Origin: a virus
Lineage: Duplodnaviria; Heunggongvirae; Uroviricota; Caudoviricetes
IMG/VR virus record: IMGVR_UViG_2909298281_000001
Span: 1 to 15,778 of that record
DNA: 15,778 nt
Reading direction: 5' to 3' (one strand)
The first letter of the stretch is position 1; each line of letters starts with the position of its first letter. Under the pieces are notes generated by a model that had not been told where the DNA came from, searched no databases, and saw only the letters and a list, made by a program, of their open reading frames with translations. Shown piece after piece: positions 1 to 15,778 of the stretch. The position numbers and the translations under genes were made by a program.

Positions 1-1260
1 ATGAAGCTCAACGCCAGACAGGTCGAGACCGCAAAGCCAAAAGACAAAACCTACAAAATGGCCGATGGTGGTGGTTTGTATCTTGAGGTTTCGGCCAAAG
101 GTTCCAAATACTGGCGCATGAAATACAGACGTCCCTCTGACAAAAAAGAGGATCGTCTCGCGTTTGGTGTTTGGCCTACTGTGACGCTTGCTCAGGCAAG
201 AGCAAAGCGCGATGAAGCCAAAAAGCTGTTAGCGCAGGGCATTGATCCAAAAGCCGAACAGAAAGAGGCTCAGGCCGAGAACTCGGGGGCATATACTTTC
301 GAAACCATTGCTCGTGAATGGCATGCTAGTAACAAGCGATGGAGTGAAGACCATCGATTGCGCGTTCTTCGCTATCTTGAACTTTATATCTTTCCATATA
401 TCGGTTCATCTGACATTCGCCAGCTCAAAACCAGCCACCTGTTAGCCCCTATTAAAAAGGTTGATGCCAGTGGCAAGCATGACGTTGCACAGCGTCTTCA
501 GCAGCGTGTCACGGCTATTATGCGTTATGCCGTGCAGAACGATTATATCGACTTTAATCCAGCCAGTGACATGGCCGGTGCGTTATCGACAACCAAAGCG
601 CGACATTACCCCGCCTTACCCTCCAGCAGGTTCCCTGAGTTTCTTGCTCGTCTTGCTGCATATCGTGGGCGTGTAATGACACGAATTGCGGTTGAGCTTT
701 CGTTACTTACTTTTGTGCGTTCCAGCGAGTTACGTTTCGCGCGTTGGGGTGAATTCGACTTCGATAAATCTCTTTGGCGCATACCTGCAAAACGAGAAGA
801 AATTAAAGGGGTGCGTTATTCGTACCGTGGCATGAAGATGAAAGAGGAGCATATCGTGCCGCTTAGTCGTCAGGCGATGAATTTATTAGACCAGCTAAAG
901 CAGATTAGTGGTGATAAGGAGCTGCTTTTTCCTGGTGATCATGACGCAACTAAGGTTATGAGTGAAAACACAGTAAACAGCGCATTACGTGCAATGGGAT
1001 ATGACACTAAGACTGAAGTGTGTGGACATGGATTTAGAACTATGGCTCGCGGTGCGTTAGGTGAGTCAGGGTTATGGAGCGACGACGCGATAGAACGGCA
1101 GTTAAGTCACTCAGAGCGCAACAATGTGCGTGCTGCATATATTCATACATCAGAACATTTAGAAGAACGACGCCTAATGATTCAATGGTGGGCTGATTAT
1201 CTTGATATGAATAAAACAACTTTCATCACGCCATTCGATTTTGCACGATTAAAAAAGTAA
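1..1260 (+). CDS. int: P4-family tyrosine integrase, 419 aa
   Basis: Full-length ORF. N-terminus MKLNARQVETAKPKDKTYK..GGGLYLEVS is typical of P4/IntS-like integrases. C-terminal catalytic-type motifs HGFRTMARG (HxxR) and RAAYIHTSEH (Tyr region). The window begins at the start codon, so attL and the target tRNA lie upstream, outside the window. Confidence 0.93.
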   Translation: MKLNARQVETAKPKDKTYKMADGGGLYLEVSAKGSKYWRMKYRRPSDKKEDRLAFGVWPTVTLAQARAKRDEAKKLLAQGIDPKAEQKEAQAENSGAYTFETIAREWHASNKRWSEDHRLRVLRYLELYIFPYIGSSDIRQLKTSHLLAPIKKVDASGKHDVAQRLQQRVTAIMRYAVQNDYIDFNPASDMAGALSTTKARHYPALPSSRFPEFLARLAAYRGRVMTRIAVELSLLTFVRSSELRFARWGEFDFDKSLWRIPAKREEIKGVRYSYRGMKMKEEHIVPLSRQAMNLLDQLKQISGDKELLFPGDHDATKVMSENTVNSALRAMGYDTKTEVCGHGFRTMARGALGESGLWSDDAIERQLSHSERNNVRAAYIHTSEHLEERRLMIQWWADYLDMNKTTFITPFDFARLKK

Positions 1261-1393
1261 AAACTTTTGCTGAAGTTTCTAGAAATAAAATTTGCTATAA
1301 ATCGACTATTTAAAACTTGGTGGTTGATTTCAATGTGTATTTGTGTTAATGATCTTTTAAATTGAAAAATATTCATCTCAAGTTGACGATTTT

Positions 1394-2296
1394 ATGGAAA
1401 TATCGAAAAATAAAATTTGGGAAGCCAAAGAATGGGAATCTCATGTAAATGATTTACTCCGACTAAAATTTGGTGAAGTAAATTATATATCTATACCTGA
1501 TTTTCATAATGGGGACGCTGGAATTGAGGGATATTGTGTACAGGGATATGCTTTTCAGTCTTATTGTCCTAATGAGGCATGTACAGTTGATAAGTTGTAT
1601 GAAAAACAAAGAGACAAGATGACCGCGGATGTTGCAAAATTCATTTCAGATAAAAAGGGGTATTTAAAAGAAATTCTACAAAACACCAGAATAAAAAGAT
1701 GGATTTTGGTAGTGCCATCTCACTTATCTAAAAAATTGAATGTTCATGCAACAAAAAAAGAAAGTGAAGTTCTAGCTGCTAAATTACCTTATGTTGATAA
1801 TGATGATTTCAAGGTGCTTATTTGGGATCGAGAAAATTTCAAAAAAGAGGAAGATGAATTAATTAGCAGCGGGCTTAGATTATTGAGGATAGAACTTCCT
1901 GAAGTCGATATTAACGATATTGATAATCTAAAAGATAACAATAGCGAGTTTGGCGATAATATTTCAAGGAAGCTTAGAAAGATAAAAAATGATGAGCGTC
2001 AAGTACAGACAGCTTCAACTGTATTATTAAAAAATATAGTTATGTATAAAAACATCATGAGTGGCCTCAAAGATAACTATCCTAGTTTATATGAAAATAT
2101 AACAAATGGTATACTGGATCGTGAGCAAGATTTGTCCTTGGCTTTTTTTGATTCTGAAAATTTGACTCTGACTCAGCAAATTCAACACCTTAATGATAAG
2201 CTAAAACAGTCTAGCCGTCTTCATCAAGATAATCTAAAATGTATTTCTACCGGAGTGGTTGGTGATTGGCTAATGCGCTGTAATTTGGACTTTTAA
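1394..2296 (+). CDS. Hypothetical protein, 300 aa; first gene of hotspot cargo operon (candidate effector)
   Basis: ATG-initiated 300-aa ORF in a markedly A+T-rich segment. Stop TAA at 2294-2296 lies 2 nt before the next ATG (2299), consistent with an operon. No catalytic motif I can assign with confidence; the stretch IPDFHNGDAGIEGYCVQ could be a degenerate nuclease-like acidic motif but this is speculative. Confidence 0.6.
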   Translation: MEISKNKIWEAKEWESHVNDLLRLKFGEVNYISIPDFHNGDAGIEGYCVQGYAFQSYCPNEACTVDKLYEKQRDKMTADVAKFISDKKGYLKEILQNTRIKRWILVVPSHLSKKLNVHATKKESEVLAAKLPYVDNDDFKVLIWDRENFKKEEDELISSGLRLLRIELPEVDINDIDNLKDNNSEFGDNISRKLRKIKNDERQVQTASTVLLKNIVMYKNIMSGLKDNYPSLYENITNGILDREQDLSLAFFDSENLTLTQQIQHLNDKLKQSSRLHQDNLKCISTGVVGDWLMRCNLDF

Positions 2297-2298
2297 TC

Positions 2299-2763
2299 AT
2301 GGATATTCTAAAAGAAACGCCTGAAAAGATGACTTTTAACTCGACTGGTTCGCCTGTTGAACCCGAATTAAGACCCATCTGGAGAATATCCTTGCTTGCT
2401 ATCATTCTTAAAAAACTATGCAGAGGCTCTTCTGCGAGTTTAAAAAAAATGCAAGTTTTATATTCTTTGATTTCCTCCGCCGATAAAAGAAGTCGGTATT
2501 TCACTGAAGGAGGTAATGCGGATATAAGCATTCGGTTTGATCCTCTCTTAGATAGAGCTATTTCGTTGGGAGTGGCAGAAGGTATATTTACTTTGGATGC
2601 TGCAAAAAGCGTTGTGTTAACCAATAAGGGCACGCTCTTATCTAATAAAATTTACAAAGATTCAACATTATTCGTTTTTGAAAAGGAATTTATCGAGAAC
2701 TATAGTAAATCTGAATTTTCCGATAAAAAGATAGATCAAATATTATACAGGGGAATTATATGA
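2299..2763 (+). CDS. Hypothetical protein, 154 aa; middle gene of hotspot cargo operon
   Basis: ORF tightly packed between flanking genes; its stop TGA (2761-2763) overlaps the ATG of the next gene (2760-2762) as ATGA. AGGGGA Shine-Dalgarno-like sequence at 2748-2753 serves the downstream gene. No recognizable motif. Confidence 0.55.
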   Translation: MDILKETPEKMTFNSTGSPVEPELRPIWRISLLAIILKKLCRGSSASLKKMQVLYSLISSADKRSRYFTEGGNADISIRFDPLLDRAISLGVAEGIFTLDAAKSVVLTNKGTLLSNKIYKDSTLFVFEKEFIENYSKSEFSDKKIDQILYRGII

Positions 2764-3987
2764 GCAAACTTAAGATTGAGAGATTAATTATACGAACAAA
2801 TACTAGTGATGGAATATATGGGACAGACCTTAAATTTGGCTATGGTCTAAATATTATAAGTGCTGAGAACTCTTCTGGTAAATCCACCTGTATACAATCA
2901 ATTATTTATGCACTAGGATTGGAGGGAATATTGGGACCATCCAGAAAAAATCCCTTAAAGTCTGCTCTAACTACTAAATTACGTGATAATAATGATACTG
3001 AAATACCGGTTAATGAATCAAAAATTTATCTCCAACTTTCTAACGAACATTCAAGAAAAATAACTATTTTAAGAAAAAGTGATAGTGATATTTCAAAAAT
3101 CGTTACCGTATATGACTGTGAGTTCGATAAAATCAATCCTCACAAATTTACGGACTATTTTTTGAAAGATCCCGGTTCTGCTCAGCGTGAGAAAGGATTT
3201 CATTATTTTCTTTCGAATTTCTTAGGGATAACACAGCCCGAAGTGATTAAATATGATGGAACCAAGTGTCCACTTTATCTTGAGTCAATATTCACAGTTA
3301 ATTATGTAGAGCAAACAAGAGGTTGGGGTGGGATTCTAAATGTTATTCCTACTTACTTGGGTATTAAGGATTTATCACAAAACGTTCTTGAATATACTCT
3401 TAATTTAGATGTTCGAGAAATAAGAAAGAAACGCGAGATATTTTTAGATGAAAAGAAAAATCTTGAAACTAAATGGGCAAATACAATCTCAGAGTTAGAG
3501 TCTAATGCAAAGGCTTATGGCTTCTTTGTATCAACAAGAATACCTGATAAAATCACTACAAAATCAGATACCTATCAAGATAGTGATTTATATACATTGG
3601 ATGAAAATAATCGTGAGATTTCTTTACCACTATACAAGGCTCATAAAGAGAACGAATTAGAATATATTAGAGCACAATTAAAAAATAACGACATCCCTAA
3701 TGATGGGGTGTTAGATTCTGTTCTTGATAGTCTTCGAGTGAATTTAGCTAATCAAGAATATGCTCTTTCATTATTAATCTCTGACATAGAGTCTAATAAA
3801 CTGTATATAAGTTCAATTAATAAGAGTCTGACTGATACAAAAGAAAGTCTTAGAAAATATAGAGATATTGAAAAGCTTAAGTTATTGGGCTCGCAGGAGG
3901 ATTTTTCTTTTGTCACTGGTAGTTGCCCAACTTGTGGACAAGCCGTTGAAGATACTCTCTTACCAGCGAGCTTTGATGGAAAGACAT

Positions 3988-3996
3988 TAACGGTTG
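3988..3996. repeat. IS1 target-site duplication, left copy (TAACGGTTG)
   Basis: 9-bp TAACGGTTG immediately abuts the IS1 end and is repeated exactly at 4765-4773. Confidence 0.88.
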
Positions 3997-4011
3997 GGTA
4001 ATGACTCCAAC

Positions 4012-4515
4012 TTATTGATAGTGTTTTATGTTCAGATAATGCCCGATGACTTTGTCATGCAGCTCCACCGATTTTGAGAACGACAGCGACTTCCGTCCCA
4101 GCCGTGCCAGGTGCTGCCTCAGATTCAGGTTATGCCGCTCAATTCGCTGCGTATATCGCTTGCTGATTACGTGCAGCTTTCCCTTCAGGCGGGATTCATA
4201 CAGCGGCCAGCCATCCGTCATCCATATCACCACGTCAAAGGGTGACAGCAGGCTCATAAGACGCACCAGCGTCGCCATAGTGCGTTCACCGAATACGTGC
4301 GCAACAACCGTCTTCCGGAGCCTGTCATACGCGTAAAACAGCCAGCGCTGGCGCGATTTAGCCCCGACGTATCCCCACTGTTCGTCCATTTCTGCGCAGA
4401 CGATGACGTCACTGCCCGGCTGTATGCGCGAGGTTACCGACTGCGGCCTGAGTTTTTTAAGTGACGTAAAATCGTGTTGAGGCCAACGCCCATAATGCGG
4501 GCAGTTGCCCGGCAT
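4012..4515 (-). CDS. insB: IS1 transposase InsB reading frame, 167 aa (expressed as InsAB' fusion by -1 frameshift)
   Basis: Translation [25 protein letters not shown]...NIKHYQ matches IS1 InsB as I recall it; position and length are canonical within IS1. Confidence 0.9.
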
Positions 4516-4709
4516 CCAACGCCATTCATGGCCATATCAATGATTTTCTGGTGCGTACCGGGTTGAGAAGCGGTGTAAGTGAACTGCAGTTGCCATGTTT
4601 TACGGCAGTGAGAGCAGAGATAGCGCTGATGTCCGGCGGTGCTTTTGCCGTTACGCACCACCCCGTCAGTAGCTGAACAGGAGGGACAGCTGATAGAAAC
4701 AGAAGCCAC
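4434..4709 (-). CDS. insA: IS1 InsA transposition repressor, 91 aa
   Basis: Translation [43 protein letters not shown]... with zinc-finger CxxC..CxxC and HTH region; canonical IS1 InsA length. Confidence 0.93.
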
Positions 4710-4764
4710 TGGAGCACCTCAAAAACACCATCATACACTAAATCAGTAAGTTGGCAGCATCACC

Positions 4765-4773
4765 TAACGGTTG
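4765..4773. repeat. IS1 target-site duplication, right copy (TAACGGTTG)
   Basis: Exact repeat of 3988-3996 immediately after the IS1 terminal repeat. Confidence 0.88.
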
Positions 4774-5582
4774 AAGATAATATAAAGTATCTAGAAAAAA
4801 CCTATGCAGTATTTGATAGCTTGGCAAAAAGTGAAAAAATAAAATTTGAAAGAAAAGAAGCTGCATTAAAAGTAGCTAATGCTAAAGTTCGAGACTTGCG
4901 TAATCAGATCAAAGAAGTTCAGCGTAGCATATCATCTCCTATAAACTCCGAGCTTAGAGAACTCATAAGAAAGGAAGTTAAACTGGAAAAGGATATCGAC
5001 ATTTTAAACTCACTGGAGGAATTCGAAATTAGTAAAAAAGATACACTTATGGCTGTTCTTTCTGATTGGTATGATTGTAATAATCAACTAACAGTACTTC
5101 CGTATGATGGTTTTAGCAAAGCAGATATATTAAAGTTGAGGTTATTACGTGATTCATTTAAATCAAACTTGGAGGATTTTGGTTATAAAAGTACACCAAT
5201 TGAAGAGTTTGATTTATCGAGAAATACATACAAACCAACTGTCGATGGTATAGATATCGGCTCTGAAGCATCCGCCAGTGATAACATTAGGGTGATTTGG
5301 TCATATTTGTATTCATTGTTGATGTTAGATTCCAGTGCAAGAGATATCTCAACTAATCATTTGGGACTGTTGATTATGGATGAACCAAGACAGCAAGAAA
5401 CTAAAGATGCTAGTTTTAGAACACTAATTAAGAAAGCATCTGAGTCGTATATTCAAGAAAAACAGATTATTATGGGTACTAGTGAAAAATTTACTGATTT
5501 AATTGCCATGCTGGATGGTTTGCATGTGAATCTTTTGCATTTCGATAGTAATATTATCCGTAAACAGTAAATCCCTCAATGT

Positions 5583-5618
5583 CCTGTTGCATCGCTAAAT
5601 ACTTAGCGATGCAACAGG
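5583..5618. terminator. Perfect 16-bp hairpin downstream of the cargo operon (candidate intrinsic terminator)
   Basis: CCTGTTGCATCGCTAA (5583-5598), loop ATAC, TTAGCGATGCAACAGG (5603-5618), 13 nt after the stop at 5570, followed by A+T-rich sequence. The T-run is not immediately adjacent, so efficiency is uncertain. Confidence 0.5.
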
Positions 5619-5811
5619 GGTATATAATTATTTATTTGTGTTGAATATAACTTCATCCTAATTTTTTTGTTTATGAAAAAGTCACTAAGAATAATTCATT
5701 TGGTTCTATTCGTTTTTCATTAAAATATTTAATCGAGATATTCAAAGATTTATATTCTATTTTGTCAATTGAACTGGCTGTAAAAGAGAAATCATTTAAA
5801 GTTGGCGCGCA

Positions 5812-5830
5812 GTGCTTTCCCCGCCTCGCC
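5812..5830 (-). other. cos site (19-nt cohesive end of the P2/P4 family)
   Basis: GTGCTTTCCCCGCCTCGCC on the plus strand is the reverse complement of GGCGAGGCGGGGAAAGCAC, which I recall as the P2/P4 cohesive-end sequence. It sits between the cargo region and psu, where cos lies in integrated P4. Confidence 0.75.
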
Positions 5831-5933
5831 CGCCCGCTTTGCGGGGCGGTTTTAATGCAGTTGCACTGACACGCTCAGGCCGCGCCGGGAATGGCGCGGT
5901 CTGCAGAAAATGAGGCAAGAAAACGCATGCAAA

Positions 5934-5964
5934 GCCATGCACCTTATCGATGCATGGCTTTTTT
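5934..5964. terminator. Hairpin plus T-run downstream of psu (candidate terminator, possibly bidirectional)
   Basis: GCCATGCA (5934-5941), 9-nt loop, TGCATGGC (5951-5958), then TTTTTT (5959-5964) on the plus strand. On the minus strand the same hairpin lies about 30 nt past the psu stop but with a weaker U-tract. Confidence 0.4.
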
Positions 5965-5994
5965 CAGTAAAAACGGGCAGATTTTCGGGGAGTT

Positions 5995-6567
5995 TTACAC
6001 AGACTGATGTGATGCCAGTTGCGCACTTTTACGCGAAAAAATCATGTTCTGCGCAGGGGTGAATTTTTCACGGCTGTCATCCACCGAAGCCGCGTCAGGC
6101 CTGAATCCGATGGTCGTTAAAATGTCGCTATCCTGTGCGGAATAATTAATTTTTTCACCCTTCGCAAGCCAGGACAGGAGGGCTTCACGCAGGGCATCTG
6201 TGGCACGCTGTATGGCACAGTTTCGGGCAATGACCGTCAGTTCACTGTAGCCCATCAGCTCCGGTGCCAGTGCGGCCGCCAGTACTGTGCCGTGCTGCTG
6301 CATAAAATCATTCAGCCGGTCGCGGATGCTGATGTGCTGAACGGCTTCATGCGAACGAATATAACGACCGGCGGCCTGATTCACCTGCCATTTTCTGACT
6401 TCGATAATATTGCGTAATTCGTCCAGGCGACTGACGTTTCTGCCTTCTCCTGACAGAAGCCGCAGGTATTCCTGTTCGGCCGCTGCCAGCTCATTTTTGC
6501 GTTGCAGCCATGCTGCTTTGTTATTCTGATAGGTGTCAAAGGCCTGCTGTAAGGCTGTGCTTTCCAT
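5995..6567 (-). CDS. psu: Psu polarity-suppression protein (capsid decoration / Rho antagonist), 190 aa
   Basis: 190-aa ORF beginning MESTALQQAFDTYQNNKAAWLQRKNELAAAEQEY... Length and sequence character match P4 Psu as I recall it, and it is the last gene of a sid-delta-psu order. Confidence 0.9.
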   Translation of the reverse strand: MESTALQQAFDTYQNNKAAWLQRKNELAAAEQEYLRLLSGEGRNVSRLDELRNIIEVRKWQVNQAAGRYIRSHEAVQHISIRDRLNDFMQQHGTVLAAALAPELMGYSELTVIARNCAIQRATDALREALLSWLAKGEKINYSAQDSDILTTIGFRPDAASVDDSREKFTPAQNMIFSRKSAQLASHQSV

Positions 6568-6640
6568 CGTTATCTCTTTCTCATCATGCTGAAGAATAAA
6601 AATACGGTGTGCGGCGACGGCCGGTGTTAACCGGCAGCCC

Positions 6641-7141
6641 TCATTCCAGACGCAGCGAATATGATTGTGTTTTTAACCGTACTGGCGGCAGTTCCTGTTT
6701 TTCATGCAGGCGTTCTGCCAGTTCGTCCGGTGTGACCGGGCGGACAATGAAGCGGTTGATGGTCTGAAGCGTTTTAAACACCAGACCACAGCCCGGATCC
6801 GTGCACACATAAAAACGCTCGGTGACTTCCTGAGAGAGACGCCGCGATGTTCTTGACAGTGCAAGGCCTTTACATCTCCGACAACAATATCCGGTAACAA
6901 GCATTCTTTTCGGGCGTTTCATACTGCCGGAGGCTGACGTCAGTGAATCGCGGTATCTCTGTTTGCCTGAAATGTATTCCATTCCTGAATCTTTACTGTC
7001 AGAGAAAAAGCTTTCACTCGCTTCAAATGTCGCAGAGCAATAAATATTCCGGCACTGTGCAATCATTATCTTGGTGCCATCGTCCATGAAATGTGCGCGG
7101 CGGGTGTGAGCAACATGTCCACACGACGGGCAGTAAATCAT
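6641..7141 (-). CDS. delta: Delta late-gene transcriptional activator (tandem Ogr-like zinc-finger protein), 166 aa
   Basis: Two Ogr-type cysteine clusters (CPSCGH...CRNIYC and CRRC...CTDPGC) in a 166-aa protein, the P4 Delta length as I recall. ATGA overlap with the sid stop (7138-7141). Confidence 0.9.
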   Translation of the reverse strand: MIYCPSCGHVAHTRRAHFMDDGTKIMIAQCRNIYCSATFEASESFFSDSKDSGMEYISGKQRYRDSLTSASGSMKRPKRMLVTGYCCRRCKGLALSRTSRRLSQEVTERFYVCTDPGCGLVFKTLQTINRFIVRPVTPDELAERLHEKQELPPVRLKTQSYSLRLE

Positions 7142-7872
7142 GACAGCAGTCCTCTGGCCTTAAGCTCTGCTCCCTGCTGGTCTATTTTGTCCTGCCACAC
7201 CTTGCGCTGTGCCGGTGTGCCCGCCACCTCATAATCCATGTGCGGAAGTGTTGCCGCTGACAGTCCGGTCAGCCGGAGAACCGGCTCGCCGGTGAGGCTG
7301 ATTTGCATCTGTTTTATTTTCTGTTCCAGCGATGATTTCACCTGCTGCATGACAGCTTTATCGGGTGCGACGTAGCCCTGATGCCCGGTGGTGTTGGCGA
7401 GCGGATTTTCCTGTACCAGAATGCTCAGATGCATTGCCCGGACAAGCGCCTCACAGGTTTCATTCAGGGCGTGTTCCAGCTCATGCTCTGCATACAGACT
7501 CAGCAGGTGATGATGTGCCTTCCGGTAGGCGGTGGCCGTGCTGTCACACGCCCCTTTCAGGCGTTCACGTTCGAAATTCAGCACCACGGCCAGATTGTCA
7601 TATTCCTGTACCAGCTCCCGGCGTGCCACGCGCTCAATGTGGCGCTGTTTCAGCTCGTCGCTCAGGACACCACCGGCTGCACGAAAGGCCGTGCGCCAGT
7701 CGTCAGCGTCGTTTCCGTCGGCCTGCGCCAGCGCATTTTTTTCCTGCTCTGCCCGTTCAATGGCCGCGACGGTCTCATCCATCAGGCGGGCGTTCTCAAG
7801 ATGGGCGGCTCTGGCCTTTTCCAGTTGTGCCAGTGCGGGTTGCAGATATTCAGGGATAGTGTGGTCAGACAT
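7138..7872 (-). CDS. sid: Sid external scaffold (capsid size determination) protein, 244 aa from the ATG at 7872
   Basis: The track ORF (7138..7890) starts at a GTG. The in-frame ATG at 7870-7872 is preceded on the minus strand by GAGGAG about 8 nt upstream and gives 244 aa, the P4 Sid length as I recall. Coiled-coil-like, alanine-rich sequence. Confidence 0.85.
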   Translation of the reverse strand: MSDHTIPEYLQPALAQLEKARAAHLENARLMDETVAAIERAEQEKNALAQADGNDADDWRTAFRAAGGVLSDELKQRHIERVARRELVQEYDNLAVVLNFERERLKGACDSTATAYRKAHHHLLSLYAEHELEHALNETCEALVRAMHLSILVQENPLANTTGHQGYVAPDKAVMQQVKSSLEQKIKQMQISLTGEPVLRLTGLSAATLPHMDYEVAGTPAQRKVWQDKIDQQGAELKARGLLS

Positions 7873-7897
7873 TTTCCGGCTCCTCGTCACTTCAGGT

Positions 7898-7962
7898 TAA
7901 GAAAATTGTGACGTACACCGGACAACAACACGACGCATTGCAGATGTGCCAGCCCTGACACA
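7898..7962 (-). promoter_or_regulatory. Candidate Psid late promoter with two TGT-N12-ACA Delta/Ogr-type dyads
   Basis: Dyads TGTGCCAGCCCTGACACA (7945-7962) and TGTGACGTACACCGGACA (7907-7924), centres about 38 bp apart. With a predicted leftward start near 7898 (a CACAAT -10-like hexamer on the minus strand at 7910-7905), they sit at about -55 and -17. I recall P4 late promoters carrying an extra activator site near -18. Confidence 0.5.
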
Positions 7963-8041
7963 GGAGACTCATCCTCAGACCGGCAAGCCAGGAAAAGGTC
8001 GCAGGAAAAACCGGCTTACTGTTTGTTTTTTTATATTTTAC

Positions 8042-8145
8042 TGTTCACCTCTGTTCACCATAAGAAAAAAGATAAGTAATACAGTAAGTTAAAGGGTGAA
8101 CAATCGCAGTAATGACTGTTCACCGTCTGTTCACCACTGTTCACC
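8042..8145. repeat. Iteron cluster (TGTTCACC octamers), candidate P4-type ori
   Basis: Five direct copies of TGTTCACC (8042-8049, 8052-8059, 8118-8125, 8128-8135, 8138-8145) and one inverted copy GGTGAACA (8095-8102). The same octamer recurs in the crr repeats downstream of alpha, about 4.8 kb away, consistent with the P4 ori/crr arrangement as I recall it. Confidence 0.6.
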
Positions 8146-8302
8146 CGTTAATGGGCTTTTTGTGCTGTTCATTACTTTTTATTTTTATTAATTCACTGAA
8201 ATAAATAAGAAAAAACAATTTGTATTTCACTATAATTTTTTCCAGCTCCTTCCAGAGCGTTTTAAAGCTATCTGCGCTGATGTACAAAAAATACACAGCC
8301 AT

Positions 8303-8365
8303 TGTAAGACTGCCGGAACAAATCCCCCCTGTTGCGTCTGCCGAAAATATTCACAAAATAAAGCG
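8303..8365 (+). promoter_or_regulatory. Candidate PLL late promoter upstream of vis
   Basis: TGT-N12-ACA dyad TGTAAGACTGCCGGAACA (8303-8320) followed about 45 bp later by a CACAAA -10-like hexamer (8352-8357) resembling the Psid CACAAT. A second, imperfect dyad lies near 8339-8355. Start site predicted around 8365. Confidence 0.4.
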
Positions 8366-8422
8366 CTACCCGAAGCCGGACGGACTTATCCGGTGCTGTA
8401 TGGACATTAACGAGGTAGCCCG

Positions 8423-8689
8423 ATGCAAGCTGTTTTTTCTTCCCCGTCTCCCGCCCCTGTGACGCCACTGATGCCGCTGCCGGACATCACGCAGGAGCGT
8501 TTTTTACGTCTGCCGGAAGTGATGCACCTGTGCGGCCTGTCACGCTCGACCATCTATGAACTCATCCGTAAGGGGGAATTTCCGCCGCAGGTGAGTCTTG
8601 GCGGTAAAAATGTGGCCTGGCTGCACTCTGAAGTCACCGCATGGATGGCCGGGCGCATTGCCGGACGCAAACGGGGGTACGACGCATGA
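8423..8689 (+). CDS. vis: Vis-like / AlpA-family helix-turn-helix regulator, 88 aa
   Basis: GAGG 7 nt upstream of the ATG. Sequence ...[28 protein letters not shown].. is AlpA/Vis-type HTH in character. 88 aa matches the P4 orf88 (vis) length as I recall. Confidence 0.75.
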
Positions 8690-8724
8690 TGATGCCTGTT
8701 CTGCAAAAAGTCCCTTTTTCTGGC

Positions 8725-8754
8725 TTGCCTTTTTCCGGCATTTGCGGATATAGT
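8725..8754 (+). promoter_or_regulatory. Candidate PLE early/immunity promoter (sigma-70 type)
   Basis: -35 TTGCCT (8725-8730), 18-bp spacer, -10 TATAGT (8749-8754). Lies just upstream of the seqA-like element at about 8784-8810. Confidence 0.4.
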
Positions 8755-8929
8755 TTTTCCGCTGTCGCAAAATCGGCAGCCGGGCGTAGGAACCCGTGTA
8801 ACTCGAAGGCGACATATGACGCGCCATGCGTCTTTTTTTGTGTCGCAATCAACGCCACAGAGCGCCAGATTATGGTGTGGCGTGTGGTTTGCCGTGCAGG
8901 TATGATCCTGTTCGCAATCGCATGTTATG

Positions 8930-9008
8930 CCACTGAGTCAATGGTAGCTCAGGCGGGGCAGCCTCCGGGCTGGCCGGTATTCTTCGAGGCCGGTATTCCT
9001 ACCCCCGT
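8930..9008 (+). ncRNA. Candidate CI immunity RNA (P4-type RNA repressor) containing a seqB-like element; boundaries approximate
   Basis: A segment TTCTTCGAGGCCGGTATTCCTACCC (about 8980-9004) is complementary to two flanking elements that share GCGTAGGAAC...CTCGAAGG (about 8784-8810 and 9028-9068), matching the seqA/seqB/seqC logic of P4 immunity as I recall it. Ends cannot be set from sequence alone. Confidence 0.35.
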
Positions 9009-9078
9009 CTGGGCTATCGCCATCGAGCGTAGGAACTCCGGCGATAGCAGTTATTTGCTACTCGAAGGAGACGGCCTT

Positions 9079-9276
9079 ATGGCTACAACCCTTACCCCCT
9101 CACACCCTGAATTTGTCTTTGTGTTTGCGGCTGTCCGTCGCGCAGACCGTCATCCCCGTATCTGTATGCTTCGCACCGTCGCCGGTGATGAACGCAGTGC
9201 CCGCCGTTCCCTTGTCCGTGACTATGTGCTCTCCCTTGCTGCCCGTCTGCCGGTGGTGGAGGTGTCCCGTGCGTAA
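9079..9276 (+). CDS. Small protein, 65 aa, kil-like by position (first translated gene after the immunity RNA)
   Basis: ATG at 9079 preceded by AAGGAG (9065-9070), which lies inside the downstream seqC-like element. Stop overlaps the next gene's GTG start (GTGCGTAA, 9269-9276). Confidence 0.45.
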
Positions 9277-9556
9277 TAAAAAAGCCCCTCAGACCGTCTC
9301 AGCGCGTCATGACGCCCGTGAACACCTCAGCATTGAGGCTTACCATAAGCTCAACCGCGCCAGCGCCGTATCCCAGTTTGTTGGGGGTGATTTGATTCAC
9401 CGTGAACTCTCCGGCCTGCATCAGCTCTACATTCCGCATATTTTCAGCTACCTGAATGAAGATATTGATTTTGTGCTGAATGAGCTGAAAGCCAAAGGCC
9501 TGTGCCGCGATTTTCTCGCCCAGCAGAAAGACCGGGGAGACAGGACGCATGTTTGA
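9269..9556 (+). CDS. Epsilon-like small protein, about 95 aa from the GTG start (assignment by position)
   Basis: GTG at 9269 is preceded by GGAGG (9258-9262) and is in frame with the track ORF 9113..9556. Its stop overlaps the orf151 start. Sits immediately upstream of orf151 as the epsilon gene does in P4, as I recall. Confidence 0.5.
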
Positions 9557-10004
9557 TTTTCCCCAGCCCGGTGAGATTTACCGTTCTGCCGGTTTTCCCG
9601 ATGTGGCCGTGGTCGGCATTCTGGAAGACGGTATTCCGTGGGAAATGCCGTACCGCTGCCCGGACATTGTCTGGAACCCGTACCGCCGTAAATTCAGTAT
9701 CCTTGTGCGTATCCTCGCTGACGGGCGCACCACAGACATCCCGCTGGGGCGTTTTCTGCGGGAATTTACCTGTGACCGTCCTGACCTGTTTAAACGCAGC
9801 CCCGTAAACCGGCATGCGGTACTGAAAGAAATGGCCGGAGACCCGGAATTACAGAAATGGCGGGAGAAATATCTGGATATTTACCCGCAGGACCCTGTTC
9901 CGGTCAGCCGGGCGGCACCGGTGGCGCGGGAATGGCGGGAAATTCCCCGCACGGAGCCTGACCCGGAAATCACCCCGGATAACAGTTACCGCAATTATCT
10001 GTAA
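9549..10004 (+). CDS. P4 orf151-like protein, 151 aa
   Basis: Exact 151-aa length, position between the epsilon-like gene and alpha, and start overlapping the upstream stop (ATGTTTGA). Confidence 0.8.
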   Translation: MFDFPQPGEIYRSAGFPDVAVVGILEDGIPWEMPYRCPDIVWNPYRRKFSILVRILADGRTTDIPLGRFLREFTCDRPDLFKRSPVNRHAVLKEMAGDPELQKWREKYLDIYPQDPVPVSRAAPVAREWREIPRTEPDPEITPDNSYRNYL

Positions 10005-10139
10005 TTAAAAAACGACACCCGAAAAATTAAATGTGCGTATTCGCGCAGGGATACGCACGTCTTCAGGAGACGCAGATATGCCTTATCAGTTAATGCAACC
10101 GGCACGGAATGCAGTCATCTGTCACAGGGAGGAAAGCAA

Positions 10140-10460
10140 ATGAAAACACCCTTACCGCCCGTCTTACGCGCTGCCCTTTACCGTCGTGCTGTCGCCTGTG
10201 CCTGGCTGACCGTGTGCGAACGTCAGCACCGCTACCCGCATCTCACCCTTGAGTCACTGGAGGCGGCCATCGCCGCTGAGCTGGAAGGCTTTTATCTGCG
10301 CCAGCACGGTGAGGAAAAAGGGCGTCAGATAGCCTGTGCCCTGCTGGAAGATTTAATGGAATCCGGCCCCCTGAAGGCCGCGCCGTCGCTGTCCTTTCTC
10401 GGGCTGGTTGTGATGGATGAACTCTGTGCCCGTCACATAAAAGCGCCGGTACTGCACTGA
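10140..10460 (+). CDS. P4 orf106-like protein, 106 aa
   Basis: 106-aa ORF immediately upstream of alpha with matching codon usage. The name is from recollected P4 ORF nomenclature. Confidence 0.7.
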
Positions 10461-10474
10461 AGGAGAACTACACC

Positions 10475-12808
10475 ATGAAAATGAACGTAACCGCCACCGT
10501 CAGTCATGCGCTCGGCCACTGGCCGCGTATTCTCCCGGCGCTGGGGATTCAGGTGCTGAAAAACCGTCATCAGCCCTGTCCGGTCTGTGGCGGGAGTGAC
10601 CGCTTCCGTTTTGATGACAGGGAGGGGCGCGGCACCTGGTACTGCAATCAGTGTGGTGCCGGTGACGGCCTGAAACTGGTTGAAAAGGTGTTTGGTGTTT
10701 CCCCGTCCGACGCGGCCGCAAAGGTGGCTGCCGTGACCGGCAGCCTGCCCCCGGCTGACCCGGCAGTGACGGCCGCCGCCGTTGCTGAAACAGAAGCCGC
10801 CCGGAAGAACGCCGCCGCACTGGCACAAACCCTGATGGCGAAAACCCGTCCCGGAACCGGTAACGCCTACCTGACCCGCAAGGGCTTTCCCGGCCGGGAA
10901 TGCCGGATGCTGACCGGCACACACAGAGCCGGTGGCGTGAGCTGGCGCGCCGGTGACCTTGTGGTGCCACTGTATGACGACAGCGGCGAACTGGTTAACC
11001 TTCAGTTAATCAGTGCTGACGGCCGTAAGCGCACCCTGAAAGGCGGACAGGTCAGGGGCACCTGTCACATCCTTGAAGGACAGAATCAGGCCGGAAAACG
11101 TCTGTGGATAGCGGAGGGATACGCGACCGCACTTACCGTGCATCACCTGACCGGTGAAACGGTGATGGTGGCGCTTTCTTCCGTGAACCTCCTTTCTCTG
11201 GCCAGACTTGCCCGGCAGAAGCATCCGGCCTGTCAGATTGTCCTTGCCGCAGACCGTGACCTCAGCGGTGACGGCCAGAAAAAAGCCGCCGCAGCCGCAG
11301 ATGCGTGTGAAGGTGTTGTTGCCCTGCCGCCGGTCTTCGGTGACTGGAATGATGCCTTCACGCAGTACGGCGGGGAGGCCACCCGTAAGGCCATTTACGA
11401 TGCCATCCGGCCACCGGCTGAAAGCCCGTTCGACACCATGAGCGAAGCGGAGTTTTCCGCCATGAGTACCAGCGAAAAGGCCATGCGTATCTATGAGCAT
11501 TACGGCGAGGCGCTCGCGGTCGATGCCAACGGCCAGCTTCTGTCCCGTTATGAAAATGGTGTCTGGAAGGTGCTGCCGCCACAGGACTTTGCCCGGGATG
11601 TGGCCGGGCTGTTTCAGCGGCTGCGCGCGCCGTTCTCCTCCGGGAAGGTGGCCTCCGTGGTGGACACCCTGAAGCTGATTATTCCGCAGCAGGAAGCCCC
11701 CTCCCGCCGCCTGATTGGCTTTCGTAACGGTGTGCTCGACACACAGAACGGCACGTTCCACCCGCACAGTCCGTCACACTGGATGCGCACCCTGTGTGAT
11801 GTGGATTTCACCCCACCGGTGGAAGGGGAAACGCTGGAAACCCACGCCCCCGCGTTCTGGCGCTGGCTTGACCGTGCCGCCGGTGGCCGTGCGGAAAAAC
11901 GCGACGTGATTCTGGCCGCACTGTTTATGGTGCTGGCAAACCGCTACGACTGGCAGCTCTTTCTGGAGGTGACCGGTCCCGGCGGCAGCGGCAAAAGTAT
12001 CATGGCCGAAATAGCCACCCTGCTGGCCGGGGAGGATAACGCCACATCGGCCACCATTGAGACGCTGGAATCCCCGCGTGAACGTGCCGCGTTAACTGGC
12101 TTCTCACTGATACGCCTGCCTGACCAGGAAAAATGGAGCGGCGACGGTGCCGGACTCAAGGCCATCACCGGCGGCGATGCGGTGTCCGTTGACCCGAAAT
12201 ACCGGGATGCGTACTCCACGCACATCCCGGCGGTGATTCTGGCCGTGAACAATAACCCGATGCGCTTCACCGACCGCAGCGGCGGCGTGTCACGCCGGCG
12301 GGTGATTATTCACTTCCCTGAACAGATAGCCCCGCAGGAGCGCGACCCGCAGCTTAAGGACAAAATCACCCGCGAGCTGGCGGTCATCGTGCGTCACCTG
12401 ATGCAGAAATTCAGCGACCCGATGCTCGCCCGGTCACTGCTTCAGTCCCAGCAGAACTCAGACGAGGCGCTGAACATCAAACGGGATGCCGACCCGACGT
12501 TTGATTTTATCGGCTATCTGGAAACCCTGCCGCAGACCAGCGGCATGTATATGGGGAACGCCAGTATCATCCCGCGCAATTACCGTAAATACCTCTATCA
12601 CGCCTATCTGGCCTACATGGAGGCAAACGGCTACCGGAACGTACTCAGTCTGAAAATGTTCGGGCTGGGGCTGCCGGTGATGCTGAAGGAATACGGACTG
12701 AATTACGAGAAGCGCCATACCAAACAGGGGATACAGACCAACCTGACACTGAAAGAGGAAAGCTACGGCGACTGGCTGCCAAAATGTGACGACCCTGCAA
12801 CAGCCTGA
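10475..12808 (+). CDS. alpha: Alpha primase-helicase replication protein, 777 aa
   Basis: AAGGAGA ribosome-binding site (10460-10466). N-terminal zinc-binding CPVCGGSDRF...YCNQCGAGDG followed by a primase-type acidic region (..LAADRDLSGDGQ..). Central Walker A GPGGSGKS and D5-type SF3 helicase region. 777 aa is the P4 alpha length as I recall. Confidence 0.95.
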   Translation: MKMNVTATVSHALGHWPRILPALGIQVLKNRHQPCPVCGGSDRFRFDDREGRGTWYCNQCGAGDGLKLVEKVFGVSPSDAAAKVAAVTGSLPPADPAVTAAAVAETEAARKNAAALAQTLMAKTRPGTGNAYLTRKGFPGRECRMLTGTHRAGGVSWRAGDLVVPLYDDSGELVNLQLISADGRKRTLKGGQVRGTCHILEGQNQAGKRLWIAEGYATALTVHHLTGETVMVALSSVNLLSLARLARQKHPACQIVLAADRDLSGDGQKKAAAAADACEGVVALPPVFGDWNDAFTQYGGEATRKAIYDAIRPPAESPFDTMSEAEFSAMSTSEKAMRIYEHYGEALAVDANGQLLSRYENGVWKVLPPQDFARDVAGLFQRLRAPFSSGKVASVVDTLKLIIPQQEAPSRRLIGFRNGVLDTQNGTFHPHSPSHWMRTLCDVDFTPPVEGETLETHAPAFWRWLDRAAGGRAEKRDVILAALFMVLANRYDWQLFLEVTGPGGSGKSIMAEIATLLAGEDNATSATIETLESPRERAALTGFSLIRLPDQEKWSGDGAGLKAITGGDAVSVDPKYRDAYSTHIPAVILAVNNNPMRFTDRSGGVSRRRVIIHFPEQIAPQERDPQLKDKITRELAVIVRHLMQKFSDPMLARSLLQSQQNSDEALNIKRDADPTFDFIGYLETLPQTSGMYMGNASIIPRNYRKYLYHAYLAYMEANGYRNVLSLKMFGLGLPVMLKEYGLNYEKRHTKQGIQTNLTLKEESYGDWLPKCDDPATA

Positions 12809-12815
12809 CCCACCT

Positions 12816-12841
12816 GACCGGCATCTGCCGGTCTTTTTTTT
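12816..12841 (+). terminator. Rho-independent terminator after alpha
   Basis: GACCGGCA-TC-TGCCGGTC perfect 8-bp stem (12816-12833) followed directly by a run of eight T (12834-12841), 8 nt after the alpha stop. Confidence 0.75.
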
Positions 12842-12856
12842 ATCCCGATATCCCCC

Positions 12857-13160
12857 GAAGGTGAACAATCCACTGTTCACCCTTCACCGTATGTTCACCC
12901 GTTATCACACTGAAATTAAAAGAGAAAAACGAAAGGTGAACAGTGTGAACAATCAAATCAAAAAAAACTTTTTTCTTCCTGAGTGATTTCAGTACGGGGG
13001 ATTAATCACCGGTATGAGTCACACCGGCAGAATGCCGGAGGTGAAGAATCGAATGTTCACCCTTCACCCATTATTCACCATCTATTACTCTGAAATAAAA
13101 GGAGAAAATCAAAGGGTGAACAGTGTGAACAGTTCTTCCGAAAAAAAATTTTTTATGTGG
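12857..13160. repeat. crr (cis replication region): two direct repeats of about 120 bp, each with several TGTTCACC/GGTGAACA iterons
   Basis: Unit 1 about 12857-12980 and unit 2 about 13037-13160 align closely (e.g. ..GTTCACCCTTCACC..CTGAAAT.AAAAG.AGAAAA.C.AAAGGTGAACAGTGTGAACA..AAAAAAA.TTTTTT). The about 60-bp spacing matches my recollection of P4 crr. Confidence 0.7.
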
Positions 13161-13344
13161 GTAAAAGATGCACTGGTTTGGATCCGAGCTACGGATCCAA
13201 ACTCACTGATTAAAAATTAGTTAACTTTCCGATTTGTTGATGGGTTGAAAATAGATTGGTCAGAAAAACAGTGGGGGCACAAAAGGGGGCATATTTCATT
13301 TTTGTTTTTTATTATTTGTTTTTTATCATTGACTTATTTTGATA

Positions 13345-13366
13345 TTTGAGTCCGGCCTTCGCACCT
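13345..13366 (+). other. Candidate attR core: degenerate copy of a tRNA 3' end (right boundary of the element)
   Basis: TTTGAGTCCGGCCTTCGCACC resembles a tRNA T-arm/acceptor 3' end (TTCGAGTCCGGCCTTCGGCACCA type), with one substitution and one deletion relative to my recollection of a leucine tRNA end. Located after crr where attR is expected. Confidence 0.45.
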
Positions 13367-13575
13367 TCGCACCATCGGAACATCAATAGACATCAACGGA
13401 CGTTTTTTTATGACTGAAATCCGCGCCACACAAGGCTTTTCGCTATTTTTCGCTCAACCTAAGTCAACCTACATCAACTTACTGATGTGGATACAGCTAC
13501 AGCTGCGGCTATACCCCGATTCGATAATGTTTGTACCCACACAAAACCCTTGAAAGGCTACAAGGCTGAAATTGT

Positions 13576-13794
13576 CTAAACCATAGAGATGATTTTTATG
13601 ATCCAGTCTTTCTCTTGTTGAGATAGTTCCAGTTTGCTCACTCGTGTTAAGAAGGTATTGATCACCTGAACATCCGAATTGGTGAGCCTATTTAATAGAG
13701 CGGGTGGTATACCTTTACTAACAATCGCTTTGCGGTGACTTTCGTAGTTTTTATTACTCATTGTTGATCCTAAAAAATCATTGTATGGCGGCAT
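13576..13794 (-). CDS. Hypothetical small ORF, 72 aa (possibly the downstream fragment of a frameshifted gene)
   Basis: ORF from track only; lies 23 nt downstream of the 80-aa ORF on the same strand in a different frame. Confidence 0.3.
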   Translation of the reverse strand: MPPYNDFLGSTMSNKNYESHRKAIVSKGIPPALLNRLTNSDVQVINTFLTRVSKLELSQQEKDWIIKIISMV

Positions 13795-13817
13795 TGATCG
13801 TTTCCAGCAACCTTTAC

Positions 13818-14060
13818 TTACTCACTTCGAACTGCATCCTCGTAGACTGTTCCACTACAATAATCGAAAAGGCGCGGATGTCCATTCAGGTATCCCGCTA
13901 ATACGTATAGCAATAACAATGGCTTATGCGGCGCGCGCTGTTCACCCTTGTGCCAGATTTTTATATTGGCAATTGCCTGCTGTAGCGATTTACTGGAAGC
14001 TATTGATATCCCTGGCAGTGAAATAATTGCGATCATGCTCGCAAATTTTCTGCTGTTCAA
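13818..14060 (-). CDS. Hypothetical small ORF, 80 aa
   Basis: ORF from track. Weak local resemblance (I-x-I-W-x-x-G-E ... P) to the N-terminal region of the divergent HNH-domain protein at 14140..14790. Confidence 0.3.
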   Translation of the reverse strand: MNSRKFASMIAIISLPGISIASSKSLQQAIANIKIWHKGEQRAPHKPLLLLYVLAGYLNGHPRLFDYCSGTVYEDAVRSE

Positions 14061-14139
14061 GCCTGCAAGTGAAGATATATTACCTTGATCTCATTTGTTT
14101 TTTTGCTGCCTGTTCTGAGAACGTATAAGGACATTCTCC

Positions 14140-14790
14140 ATGAATAAACTCCCTGATCATCTTCCGCGGCGGTATATCATCGAAGCTATCCATTTATGGG
14201 ATGCGGGAGAAACTCATCAGTTCCAGCCTGCGCGGTTGTATGAGATTGAATATCATGGCCGACGTTACCCCTCGAAGGCGATTGCTGGCATCGCAGCGAC
14301 ATTGATGACGGGGACGCAATTTACCCCTGCGGATTTCACCGGCGGAATAAAATCTAAATGTGTCAAGCTACTCATAGAGCAGGGATTTCATATTCATCTG
14401 GATAAAGCCGCTGCGGCTCCCATAGCCGACGTTCTGTTCCCGGATGAGTTGCCGTCGCAGGAGACATACCTTGAAGGTGCGGCGATAAAGGTGACAGTAA
14501 ACCGCTATGAACGCGATAAAAAGGCCCGAGATAAAGCGGTCGAACATCATGGATGCCAGTGCAACGTATGCGGTGTTGATCTGGTGAAGATCTATGGTGA
14601 TATCGCTGAAGGCTTTATCCATGTGCATCACCTGGTGCCGCTGTCAGCCATTAAAGAGGATTACCAGCTGGATCCAGTTAATGATTTGCTGCCTGTGTAC
14701 CCTAATTGCCATGCGATGTTGCACCGACGCAAACCACCGTTTACGCCGGAGCAGTTAAAAGCGCTGATGGATGCGAATAAATCAAATTAA
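14140..14790 (+). CDS. HNH endonuclease-domain protein, 216 aa, with an uncharacterized N-terminal domain
   Basis: C-terminal HNH-type motif CQCNVCGV...HVHHLVPLS...N...YPNCHAMLH (two Cys pairs plus His-His and Asn). The N-terminal 130 aa has no motif I can assign. Confidence 0.75.
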   Translation: MNKLPDHLPRRYIIEAIHLWDAGETHQFQPARLYEIEYHGRRYPSKAIAGIAATLMTGTQFTPADFTGGIKSKCVKLLIEQGFHIHLDKAAAAPIADVLFPDELPSQETYLEGAAIKVTVNRYERDKKARDKAVEHHGCQCNVCGVDLVKIYGDIAEGFIHVHHLVPLSAIKEDYQLDPVNDLLPVYPNCHAMLHRRKPPFTPEQLKALMDANKSN

Positions 14791-14797
14791 TGAACGC

Positions 14798-15778
14798 TCA
14801 CCTTTCGCGCCAAAACTGCAAAATTGCTTCTACAAACTTGTCAGAAATAATCCCCCGACGGGCTGCCGTGCTGAAATGACTGCTTCGCAGTGCCGTCGTC
14901 CAGTTCTCCGGTGACCGGTACGCTGAACCGTAATATCCCGTGCTTAAATCGTCCGGGTCTTCATCAGGCGCGTTCGTCAGTCCTCTTTCACCTTGTTGCT
15001 GGAAGTCGACGAAAATAATATTGGCTAAAACATTATTTTGATAATTGCCATAAATAACTTCATACGCATGAGGGAAATTTTCTTTCCAGTACCAGGTGGT
15101 ATCGCCGCAAAACCACGGTGCGTCAGTAATATTATTAAGCTGAGAATGGTATTGTTTTAGATCCCTACGAAAGGCTTCAACCATATGATTAAAGTGTTGA
15201 GGGTGTGACGCGTAGTCACTGGTCATTAAGTCAAATTCGCCTTGCATCCAGCATACGCCGAGGAATTTGTTATGCGGATTTTTTGCCAGTGCTGCTCGCG
15301 TTCTGCTGACTAAATCCTGGTATAGCGGAGTATCCGTTCCCCAACGACAAGCATCATGGCTGGCTCCGTGCCGTTCTGAATATGTCCCTTCGCTGCCCGC
15401 GGTAAAAGCCGATCCGCCACGGCAACACGGAACGATGAGAACCCCTGCATTATCAGGAATAAAGGGCAGTAATTTCCGTGCTATATGCAGTGCCTGGCCA
15501 ACGGTGCCGTACTGTGTTTGATGATTCGTTGCCAGAGGATGGTGATAACCCTGCATATCCTGAACATCGTGTGGGCAGTGAGTCAGTGGAATCATGTCGT
15601 TAAAGTGACATGGCGGGCCTCCGGGATGCGTATGCGCAAATCTCGCTAATTGTTTGATTCTGGGATGAGGCGCATCTTCCCTGTCCGGTAATGGCAGTCC
15701 TTCGCCATACGCCATGGCATTAGACTGACCAGCAATGGTAAGAATATAGTAATAATCGGGCGATATTATTGCGTTCAT
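14798..15778 (-). CDS. nanS: Sialate O-acetylesterase (NanS/YjhS-like, SGNH-type esterase), 326 aa
   Basis: Complete minus-strand ORF whose ATG is the last codon of the window. N-terminal MNAIISPDYYYILTIAGQSNAMAYG with the GQSN catalytic-serine motif; 326 aa matches E. coli NanS as I recall. Confidence 0.8.
   Translation of the reverse strand: MNAIISPDYYYILTIAGQSNAMAYGEGLPLPDREDAPHPRIKQLARFAHTHPGGPPCHFNDMIPLTHCPHDVQDMQGYHHPLATNHQTQYGTVGQALHIARKLLPFIPDNAGVLIVPCCRGGSAFTAGSEGTYSERHGASHDACRWGTDTPLYQDLVSRTRAALAKNPHNKFLGVCWMQGEFDLMTSDYASHPQHFNHMVEAFRRDLKQYHSQLNNITDAPWFCGDTTWYWKENFPHAYEVIYGNYQNNVLANIIFVDFQQQGERGLTNAPDEDPDDLSTGYYGSAYRSPENWTTALRSSHFSTAARRGIISDKFVEAILQFWRER

Follow-up and report, generated by a model that had tools for sequence, protein, structure and literature searches.

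The stretch analysed here (the window; 15,778 nt, positions 1 to 15,778 of IMG/VR record IMGVR_UViG_2909298281_000001) lies on chromosome CP024252 of Escherichia coli D181, an enterotoxigenic strain (O182:H21, phylogroup B1, ST4493) from diarrhoea. Coordinates throughout are positions in the window, and repeat copies were searched on both strands. Judged by its genes, most of the window is a P4-like satellite integrated at tRNA-Leu(CAA), with a Lamassu defence cassette, lmuA-lmuC-lmuB, in the defence hotspot between the integrase gene and psu (Table 1). The last gene of the cassette, lmuB, is interrupted by a copy of the insertion sequence (IS) IS1, leaving two open reading frames (ORFs) on either side of the element. 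Here we describe the insertion, its predicted consequence for the Lamassu system and its probable origin in a strain-specific burst of IS1 transposition.

Table 1. Features of the D181 window, in order of position, with the basis of each assignment.
Feature	Position	Strand	Basis
P4-type tyrosine integrase, 419 aa	1..1260	+	Pfam Arm-DNA-bind_3, Phage_int_M, Phage_integrase
lmuA, 300 aa, intact effector; PD-(D/E)xK-fold N-terminal and helical C-terminal domain	1394..2296	+	PADLOC 1.7e-31; fold comparison
A7 tract in lmuA, intact in D181	1753..1759	+	A8 or A6 in other strains
lmuC, 154 aa, intact, middle component	2299..2763	+	PADLOC LmuC 1e-26
lmuB 5´ part, codons 1-412 plus Gly and stop from IS1 (413 aa)	2760..4001	+	Walker A G40-K41, Q185, ascending coiled coil, CxxC 389-392
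Target-site duplication, left copy, TAACGGTTG	3988..3996	.	Single copy in 13/13 empty-site loci
IS1, 768 bp, IS1A family	3997..4764	-	IRR 3997-4019, IRL 4742-4764; length, termini, identity to annotated copies
insB reading frame	4012..4515	-	Joined to insA via A6C frameshift motif 4452-4458
insA, 91 aa, GTG start	4434..4709	-	ORF
Target-site duplication, right copy, TAACGGTTG	4765..4773	.	Sequence identity with left copy
lmuB 3´ part, native codons 413-677	4774..5570	+	Descending coiled coil, signature-like SEASASD 576-582, Walker B LLIMDE 611-616
psu, 190 aa, right border of defence hotspot	5995..6567	-	Pfam Psu 5.6e-87
delta (166 aa) and sid-like ORF	6641..7890	-	Pfam Ogr_Delta; gene order as in loci L001 and L008; sid by position only
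alpha primase-helicase, 777 aa	10475..12808	+	Pfam Zn_Ribbon_Prim, Toprim_3, D5_N, Pox_D5
attR, imperfect copy of tRNA-Leu 3´ end, right end of satellite	13346..13374	+	Comparison with tRNA-Leu

The segment between the two parts of lmuB has GGTAATGACTCCAACTTATTGAT at its start and the reverse complement of GGTGATGCTGCCAACTTACTGAT at its end; we take these to be the IS1 terminal repeats IRR and IRL, respectively. These two ends match each other at 18 of their first 23 positions, as imperfect inverted repeats. The insA and insB frames lie on the minus strand, and a -1 shift at the A6C motif (read from 4458 to 4452) leaves InsAB´ open for 232 aa. Among the products of the source contig, Pfam detected Zn_ribbon_InsA, HTH_Tnp_IS1 and DDE_Tnp_IS1. 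Over its full length the element is 99.7% identical to RefSeq E. coli copies annotated as ´IS1-like element IS1A family´. A first-pass annotation of the window had described a complete 768-bp IS1 with intact terminal repeats and intact insA and insB; this description held, with both ends, the 91-aa InsA and the 232-aa InsAB´ all found.

The element is flanked by identical copies of the 9-mer TAACGGTTG, as had also been noted from the letters of the window alone. We found no other copy in the window on either strand; the two are exactly 768 bp apart (3997-4764), and a match of such a 9-mer pair by chance has a probability of ~4e-6. When IS1 and one copy (3997-4773) were excised in silico, a reading frame of 677 codons and a stop opened at 2760; its length is the one stated in the first-pass annotation. 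The restored LmuB matches an intact E. coli protein on record (WP_075034274.1, P0233 in our set) at every residue (100% identity).

IS1-free alleles, which had been proposed as a check on the insertion, were found in every relative compared. Our sample comprised 13 related E. coli loci: two complete chromosomes, ten loci found with the LmuC protein of the window, and one draft contig. IS1 was absent from 13 of 13, and each carried the 22-mer GACATTAACGGTTGAAGATAAT, in which the site is empty and the 9-mer occurs once. On the two complete chromosomes, 2013C-4974 (NZ_CP027587) and OkiPb01713 (NZ_AP042682), lmuB is annotated as one 2034-bp coding sequence without IS1, and LmuB homologues in groups as far apart as Enterobacterales, Bacteroidota and Actinomycetota are likewise single ORFs of ~670-700 aa. 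Since every IS-free allele has one copy of TAACGGTTG, the pair in D181 is read as a target-site duplication and not as native tandem sequence. With IS1 excised, a single nucleotide separates the 3,400-bp operon from its nearest intact counterparts, L008 and L016, in an alignment of 13 sequences with 17 variable columns, and the truncated 413-aa LmuB product is recorded for a single contig. Because the restored protein equals an extant intact allele, the operon is a single nucleotide away from its nearest intact relatives and the truncated product is confined to that contig, the comparison dates the insertion as recent and strain-specific, in line with the age suggested for it at first reading. 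Three amino-acid differences from the L001 allele were considered as decay after the insertion and rejected; P0233 has the same residues, so these differences are allelic.

The gene that was hit had been called a defence ATPase, and the restored 677-aa protein indeed matched the PADLOC LmuB model with E = 1e-99 over residues 2-671. On sequence grounds we assign lmuA-lmuC-lmuB to the three-gene (type II, ABC-3C) class of Lamassu, with lmuB encoding its SMC/Rad50-like ATPase; DdmABC of Vibrio cholerae belongs to the same class (PMC12409362). Across the LmuB family the Walker A residues G40-K41, Q185, the CxxC at 389-392, the signature-like S579-S581-D582 and the Walker B D615-E616 are invariant. 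The 4-bp overlap between lmuC and lmuB and the position of lmuC are kept in distant relatives, and the architecture of ~300, 155 and 680-700 aa is kept in those of Paraglaciecola and Fluviicola. A scan of genome contigs returned three distant relatives only and no close alleles. As a structural model we used the AlphaFold prediction for P0001, a protein of equal length and 92% identical to restored LmuB (mean predicted local distance difference test score 84.5). In this model, long antiparallel helices (ascending 316-375, descending 412-465) are joined by a loop (376-411) that places the CxxC at the turn.

For the effector, the N-terminal domain of LmuA has a restriction-endonuclease-like fold, and the fold of LmuA matches that of solved Lamassu LmuA, as judged by fold comparison only. 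Its family has the invariant pattern GD41xG...Q55-x-Y57 with D41, E45 and Q55 conserved, a tyrosine (Y57) at the position expected for the (D/E)xK lysine, and invariant K75 and K82 in the next helix. Catalytic competence of LmuA is thus an inference. No Pfam family matched LmuA or LmuC, and searches of PDB sequences with LmuB and LmuA, both as single sequences and as profiles, gave no match or coiled-coil noise only.

In LmuB the break follows residue 412, which places it 20 residues beyond the CxxC hook, where the descending coiled-coil helix begins; the truncated 413-aa product ends in TLTVG followed by the stop. Because the break falls after codon 412, the half with the signature motif and Walker B is lost: the N-terminal fragment would retain Walker A and the Q-loop, together with one arm and the hook, and would be without the second arm, the signature, Walker B and the remainder of the C-terminal head. 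With the signature, Walker B and C-terminal head missing, no ATPase head would therefore be able to form. Near the junction no ATG is in frame with the 3´ half; the candidate starts are TTG at native codons 429 and 454, neither preceded by a ribosome-binding site (Shine-Dalgarno sequence), and this half is therefore probably untranslated. We considered an outward hybrid promoter and expression of the 3´ half and rejected both as unsupported, given two promoter-like sites where 1.8 are expected and no ATG or Shine-Dalgarno sequence.

In two characterised Lamassu systems, mutation of the LmuB Walker A abolishes defence (PMC12663957), and by this analogy the D181 Lamassu is most likely null. Since lmuB is the last gene of the operon and faces the convergent psu, polarity on other genes is not expected, and lmuA and lmuC are intact. 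Current models have an LmuB2-LmuC complex that sequesters monomeric LmuA, with freed LmuA tetramerising into the active nuclease. As chromosomally expressed free DdmA has been reported to show only limited toxicity, viability of an lmuB null genotype appears plausible. In terms of annotation, the two ´hypothetical proteins´ of 413 and 249 aa beside IS1 in CP024252 are the halves of one lmuB pseudogene, and D181 should be scored as Lamassu-negative despite its intact lmuA and lmuC.

The copy in lmuB is not the only one of its kind in the strain. An exact look-up of its 125-aa InsB product returned ten places, eight of them on the D181 chromosome (CP024252.1, L031-L038) and two in GCA_002507975.1 (L029-L030). 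All IS1 copies at these places are identical to the window copy at 768 of 768 positions, so that D181 has at least eight. Five of the D181 copies, that in lmuB included, have their own perfect 9-bp duplications (TCCAATGTA, AATCATTCG, TGCTCTACC, GCAAATTTA and CAACCGTTA, the last being TAACGGTTG read on the opposite strand), with flanks of 35-47% GC. IS1-like sequences are present in 4,971 of 5,426 complete RefSeq E. coli genomes, at a median of 11 places per genome; an exact (100%) copy of the window IS1 was found in none of these 5,426, the best reaching 99.7%. The at least eight identical copies in D181, together with the absence of an exact copy from the complete genomes, indicate a recent, lineage-specific burst of a private IS1 variant in which the lmuB insertion is one event. 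The same copies, five with their own duplications, hint indirectly that the window IS1 may be mobile. Elsewhere in D181 the variant interrupts unrelated genes, tnaB and a fimbrial usher region among them. D181 and GCA_002507975.1 have the insertion in tnaB, with its duplication, in common, while for the latter no 413-aa truncated LmuB is on record (presence of the cassette there is unconfirmed); with that proviso, the pattern suggests that the insertion in lmuB is younger than the shared one in tnaB.

Some further observations concern IS1 and the other replicons of D181. The four plasmids (CP024249-51 and CP024253) measure 167, 99, 36 and 46 kb, and the 99-kb one carries blaTEM, sul1/2, dfrA1, aadA1 and mer. 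A donor IS1 on these plasmids was rejected, as their sole copy (plasmid 2) differs from the window copy at six positions. One inverted IS1 pair and one IS1 in a P2/186-like prophage have no target duplications, which points to rearrangements. The prophage copy (L035, CP024252.1 2320458-2323835) lies beside a truncated methyltransferase gene and near the tail sheath gene. A potential helper phage and the P4-like satellite of D181 thus both carry IS1.

The same cassette has been disrupted in other strains by other kinds of mutation. In lmuA, the A7 tract is A8 in OkiPb01713 (L002, ~4256), with the resulting fragments of 124 and 183 aa found on ~290 and ~281 contigs, respectively, and A6 in CP164087 (L015). 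A 1-nt deletion (G) in lmuB of GCA_043768105.1 (L014), at about window position 5102, yields products of 531 and 144 aa, and in Shigella dysenteriae both LmuC and LmuA are truncated. Because the A8 fragments occur on so many contigs, a sequencing error is unlikely. The A8 allele may largely represent one heavily sequenced clone. The A7 tract is either a slippage hot spot or a possible on/off switch. Intact LmuA is found on 227 and 91 contigs, and the cassette is intact in 7 of the 10 loci shown, which were de-duplicated and so give no frequencies. Partial LmuB sequences at the ends of draft contigs (P0018, P0236-P0242) were considered as further IS insertions and proved uninformative: they start at residues 5, 82, 148, 287 and 359-364, none at 412 or 413. 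Together, the intact, IS1-disrupted, A8 and A6 frameshift and lmuB 1-nt deletion alleles constitute a natural matched set for the function and cost of this Lamassu subtype.

Taken together, the data make it very probable that IS1 transposed into lmuB of the satellite-borne Lamassu and that this was a recent, strain-specific knock-out arising from the IS1 burst. In the mechanism we propose, an IS1 copy moved into lmuB, the last gene of lmuA-lmuC-lmuB, with the usual 9-bp duplication, and the insertion would be a by-product of the lineage-specific burst, which is the most economical reading. IS1 prefers AT-rich targets and 9-bp duplications dominate among its insertions (PMC10359306); duplications of 8 bp also occur. 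Because the 3.4-kb cassette is 30-35% GC, it would be an attractive target within a region of ~50-60% GC, and the loss of lmuB would have been tolerated or mildly favoured. We regard such a tolerated by-product as most likely, ahead of selected loss and of an origin in laboratory storage.

Several points count against this reading. The 9-mer TAACGGTTG is not AT-rich itself, with four of its nine bases G or C. The insertion is known from the assembled sequence of D181, and the loss of function is our inference. Some severely truncated DdmABC mutants reportedly kept anti-phage activity, a claim that the review citing it treats with caution (PMC12409362). Finally, the independent frameshifts in the cassette of other strains hint that loss may be favoured and not neutral. 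Selection against a costly system and relaxed selection had both been offered as possibilities at first reading, and the data point both ways: the independent disruptions favour recurrent loss, the strain-wide burst of identical IS1 copies into AT-rich DNA a chance hit.

The strongest rival, an adaptive knock-out in which plasmid-triggered or spontaneous self-damage by Lamassu selects for inactivation, chiefly where large plasmids are needed, we consider unlikely but deserving of weight. D181 would fit such a setting, as its four plasmids include two of the IncF type, one of 167 kb (the ST/LT virulence plasmid) that encodes sta1, ltcA and astA, and the 99-kb multidrug-resistance plasmid. DdmABC-type Lamassu shows plasmid-dependent toxicity and imposes a fitness cost on plasmid carriers (PMC12409362), and Lamassu operons are toxic on over-expression. 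The independent breakage of the cassette by lmuA A8, lmuA A6 (L015), the lmuB deletion (L014) and the S. dysenteriae truncations would be expected if loss were selected, and in E. coli, rescue from self-cutting cas nucleases comes mainly through IS1 (PMC10359306). However, the cassette stays intact in many strains, as the 227 and 91 contigs with intact LmuA and the seven of ten intact loci attest. The lmuB insertion is moreover one of at least eight by the same variant, the others having struck unrelated genes such as tnaB and the fimbrial usher, and the frameshift allele may owe much of its abundance to a single clone that was sequenced many times.

An origin during laboratory storage or passage of D181, and not in nature, seems improbable. 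It is well known that IS elements move in E. coli cultures kept in storage. The insertion is seen in a single assembly and shows no sequence decay since it occurred, and GCA_002507975.1 has the tnaB::IS1 insertion without a 413-aa product on record (again with cassette presence unconfirmed). Somewhat more doubtful still is an extended version of the adaptive explanation, in which IS1, poly-A slippage in lmuA in both directions and the lmuB deletion would be several selected shut-offs driven by plasmid-triggered self-damage, with A7 acting as a reversible switch. There is very little prospect that LmuB is split yet functional, its halves made separately and reassembling through their coiled coils. 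In its favour, the break in the predicted structure sits at the apex of the coiled coil, with one half of the ATPase head on either side, but the 3´ half has no in-frame start other than the two TTG codons without a ribosome-binding site, promoter-like sites at the junction are not above chance, and no naturally split homologue was found. The weakest proposal, that no insertion took place and the window holds either naturally separate ORFs with a native tandem 9-mer, two objections that the first-pass annotation had raised against itself, or an assembly artefact, has next to no chance of being right and found nothing in its favour: in each IS-free allele the gene is a single ORF and the 9-mer occurs once, which refutes the natural split, and an artefact would not create a perfect duplication, which further D181 copies of the same IS1 also have.

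The P4-like satellite itself has its core genes in P4 order. After psu its order is delta, the sid-like ORF, alpA, ash, a derepression gene and alpha (Pfam AlpA, Ash and Derepression). Its attL and tRNA-Leu(CAA) lie ~165-250 bp to the left of the window, the tRNA gene corresponding to 6994-7078 of L003; attR is an imperfect and partly reiterated copy of the tRNA-Leu 3´ end (GAGTCCGGCCTTCGCACCTTCGCACCA; compare L003 7056-7078). The satellite measures ~13.56 kb with IS1 and ~12.78 kb without it, and P4 itself is ~11 kb (PMC13586616); the extra 777 bp might affect packaging. The GC content of the Lamassu cassette is 30-35%, against 50-64% for the satellite core.

The same Lamassu cassette is found on two P4-like backbones, one with a delta of 166 aa (D181 and L008-L017) and one with a delta of 81 aa (L001 and L002), with ~95.6% identity downstream; the backbones were compared over window positions 5776-6241 (excised coordinates) against L001 and L002. 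One cassette on two backbones fits the swapping of hotspots between satellites described in the literature. At L016 (GCA_021275145.1, from 8814 onward), similarity to the satellite stops ~320 bp after the lmuB stop and resumes as a 93%-identical stretch matching the sequence near attR. The psu-to-alpha core is apparently missing there, and what comes next is a second integrase fragment with a BrxR-like gene; the Lamassu is intact in a seemingly degraded element. Outside the satellite, beyond attR, the window has a 216-aa ORF (14140-14790, plus strand), whose HNH match is weak (Pfam E = 0.0034) and does not reach the curated cut-off, and a gene resembling SASA-family sialate esterases (14798-15778, minus strand) that runs off the window.

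With respect to known systems, the event is of an already known kind: inactivation by IS1 is textbook, IS elements in defence genes are known from CRISPR-Cas, and Lamassu and P4 hotspots are both established. It leaves the current understanding of IS1 or Lamassu unchanged. The insertion has the length of 768 bp, the insA/insB´ organisation and the 232-aa transposase of IS1 (PMC12428005), together with IRL and IRR, the A6C motif, the 9-bp duplication and an AT-rich target region, all as in mutagenesis by the IS1A family; the window copy differs by 2 nt from the closest copy of that family in complete RefSeq genomes. In the inactivation of CRISPR-Cas by natural IS elements (PMC10359306), IS1 is likewise prominent, the target is a nuclease-based defence gene and the insertions show 9-bp duplications and a preference for AT-rich DNA. 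The target here, however, is the sensor ATPase of a satellite Lamassu, and there is no sign that self-damage triggered the event or selected for it. Loss of ddmABC in recent Bangladeshi seventh-pandemic El Tor (7PET) V. cholerae (PMC12409362) is similar in that a Lamassu-type system was lost or mutated in a pathogen lineage, and differs in species, mobile element and mutation type.

The cassette shares with type II (ABC-3C) Lamassu, as represented by V. cholerae DdmABC, Salmonella LmuACB and E. coli Ec-Lipase, the gene order of effector, small middle component and SMC/Rad50-like ATPase, and the length of LmuB (677 aa) and its hhhhDE Walker B fit the ´short´ Lamassu type (PMC12663957). It differs in having no match at the sequence level to the solved Lamassu chains, in the single CxxC hook of D181 LmuB compared with Vc-Cap4, in the Q55-x-Y57 of LmuA, with invariant K75 and K82 close by, compared with the (D/E)xK Lamassu nucleases, and in being broken in D181. 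The system is thus a Lamassu subtype known to existing PADLOC models, uncharacterised and with an unusual LmuA active site. Its setting is that of P4-like defence hotspots (PMC9122126; PMC13586616), with the cassette between int and psu, a tRNA integration site and a GC content below that of the core genes. Defence pseudogenes and transposable elements are reported to be rare in P4 hotspots (PMC13586616), whereas this Lamassu cassette has been pseudogenised by at least four independent routes. It is a documented exception to the recent claim of that study that the exchange of defence systems at P4 hotspots bypasses a pseudogene stage.

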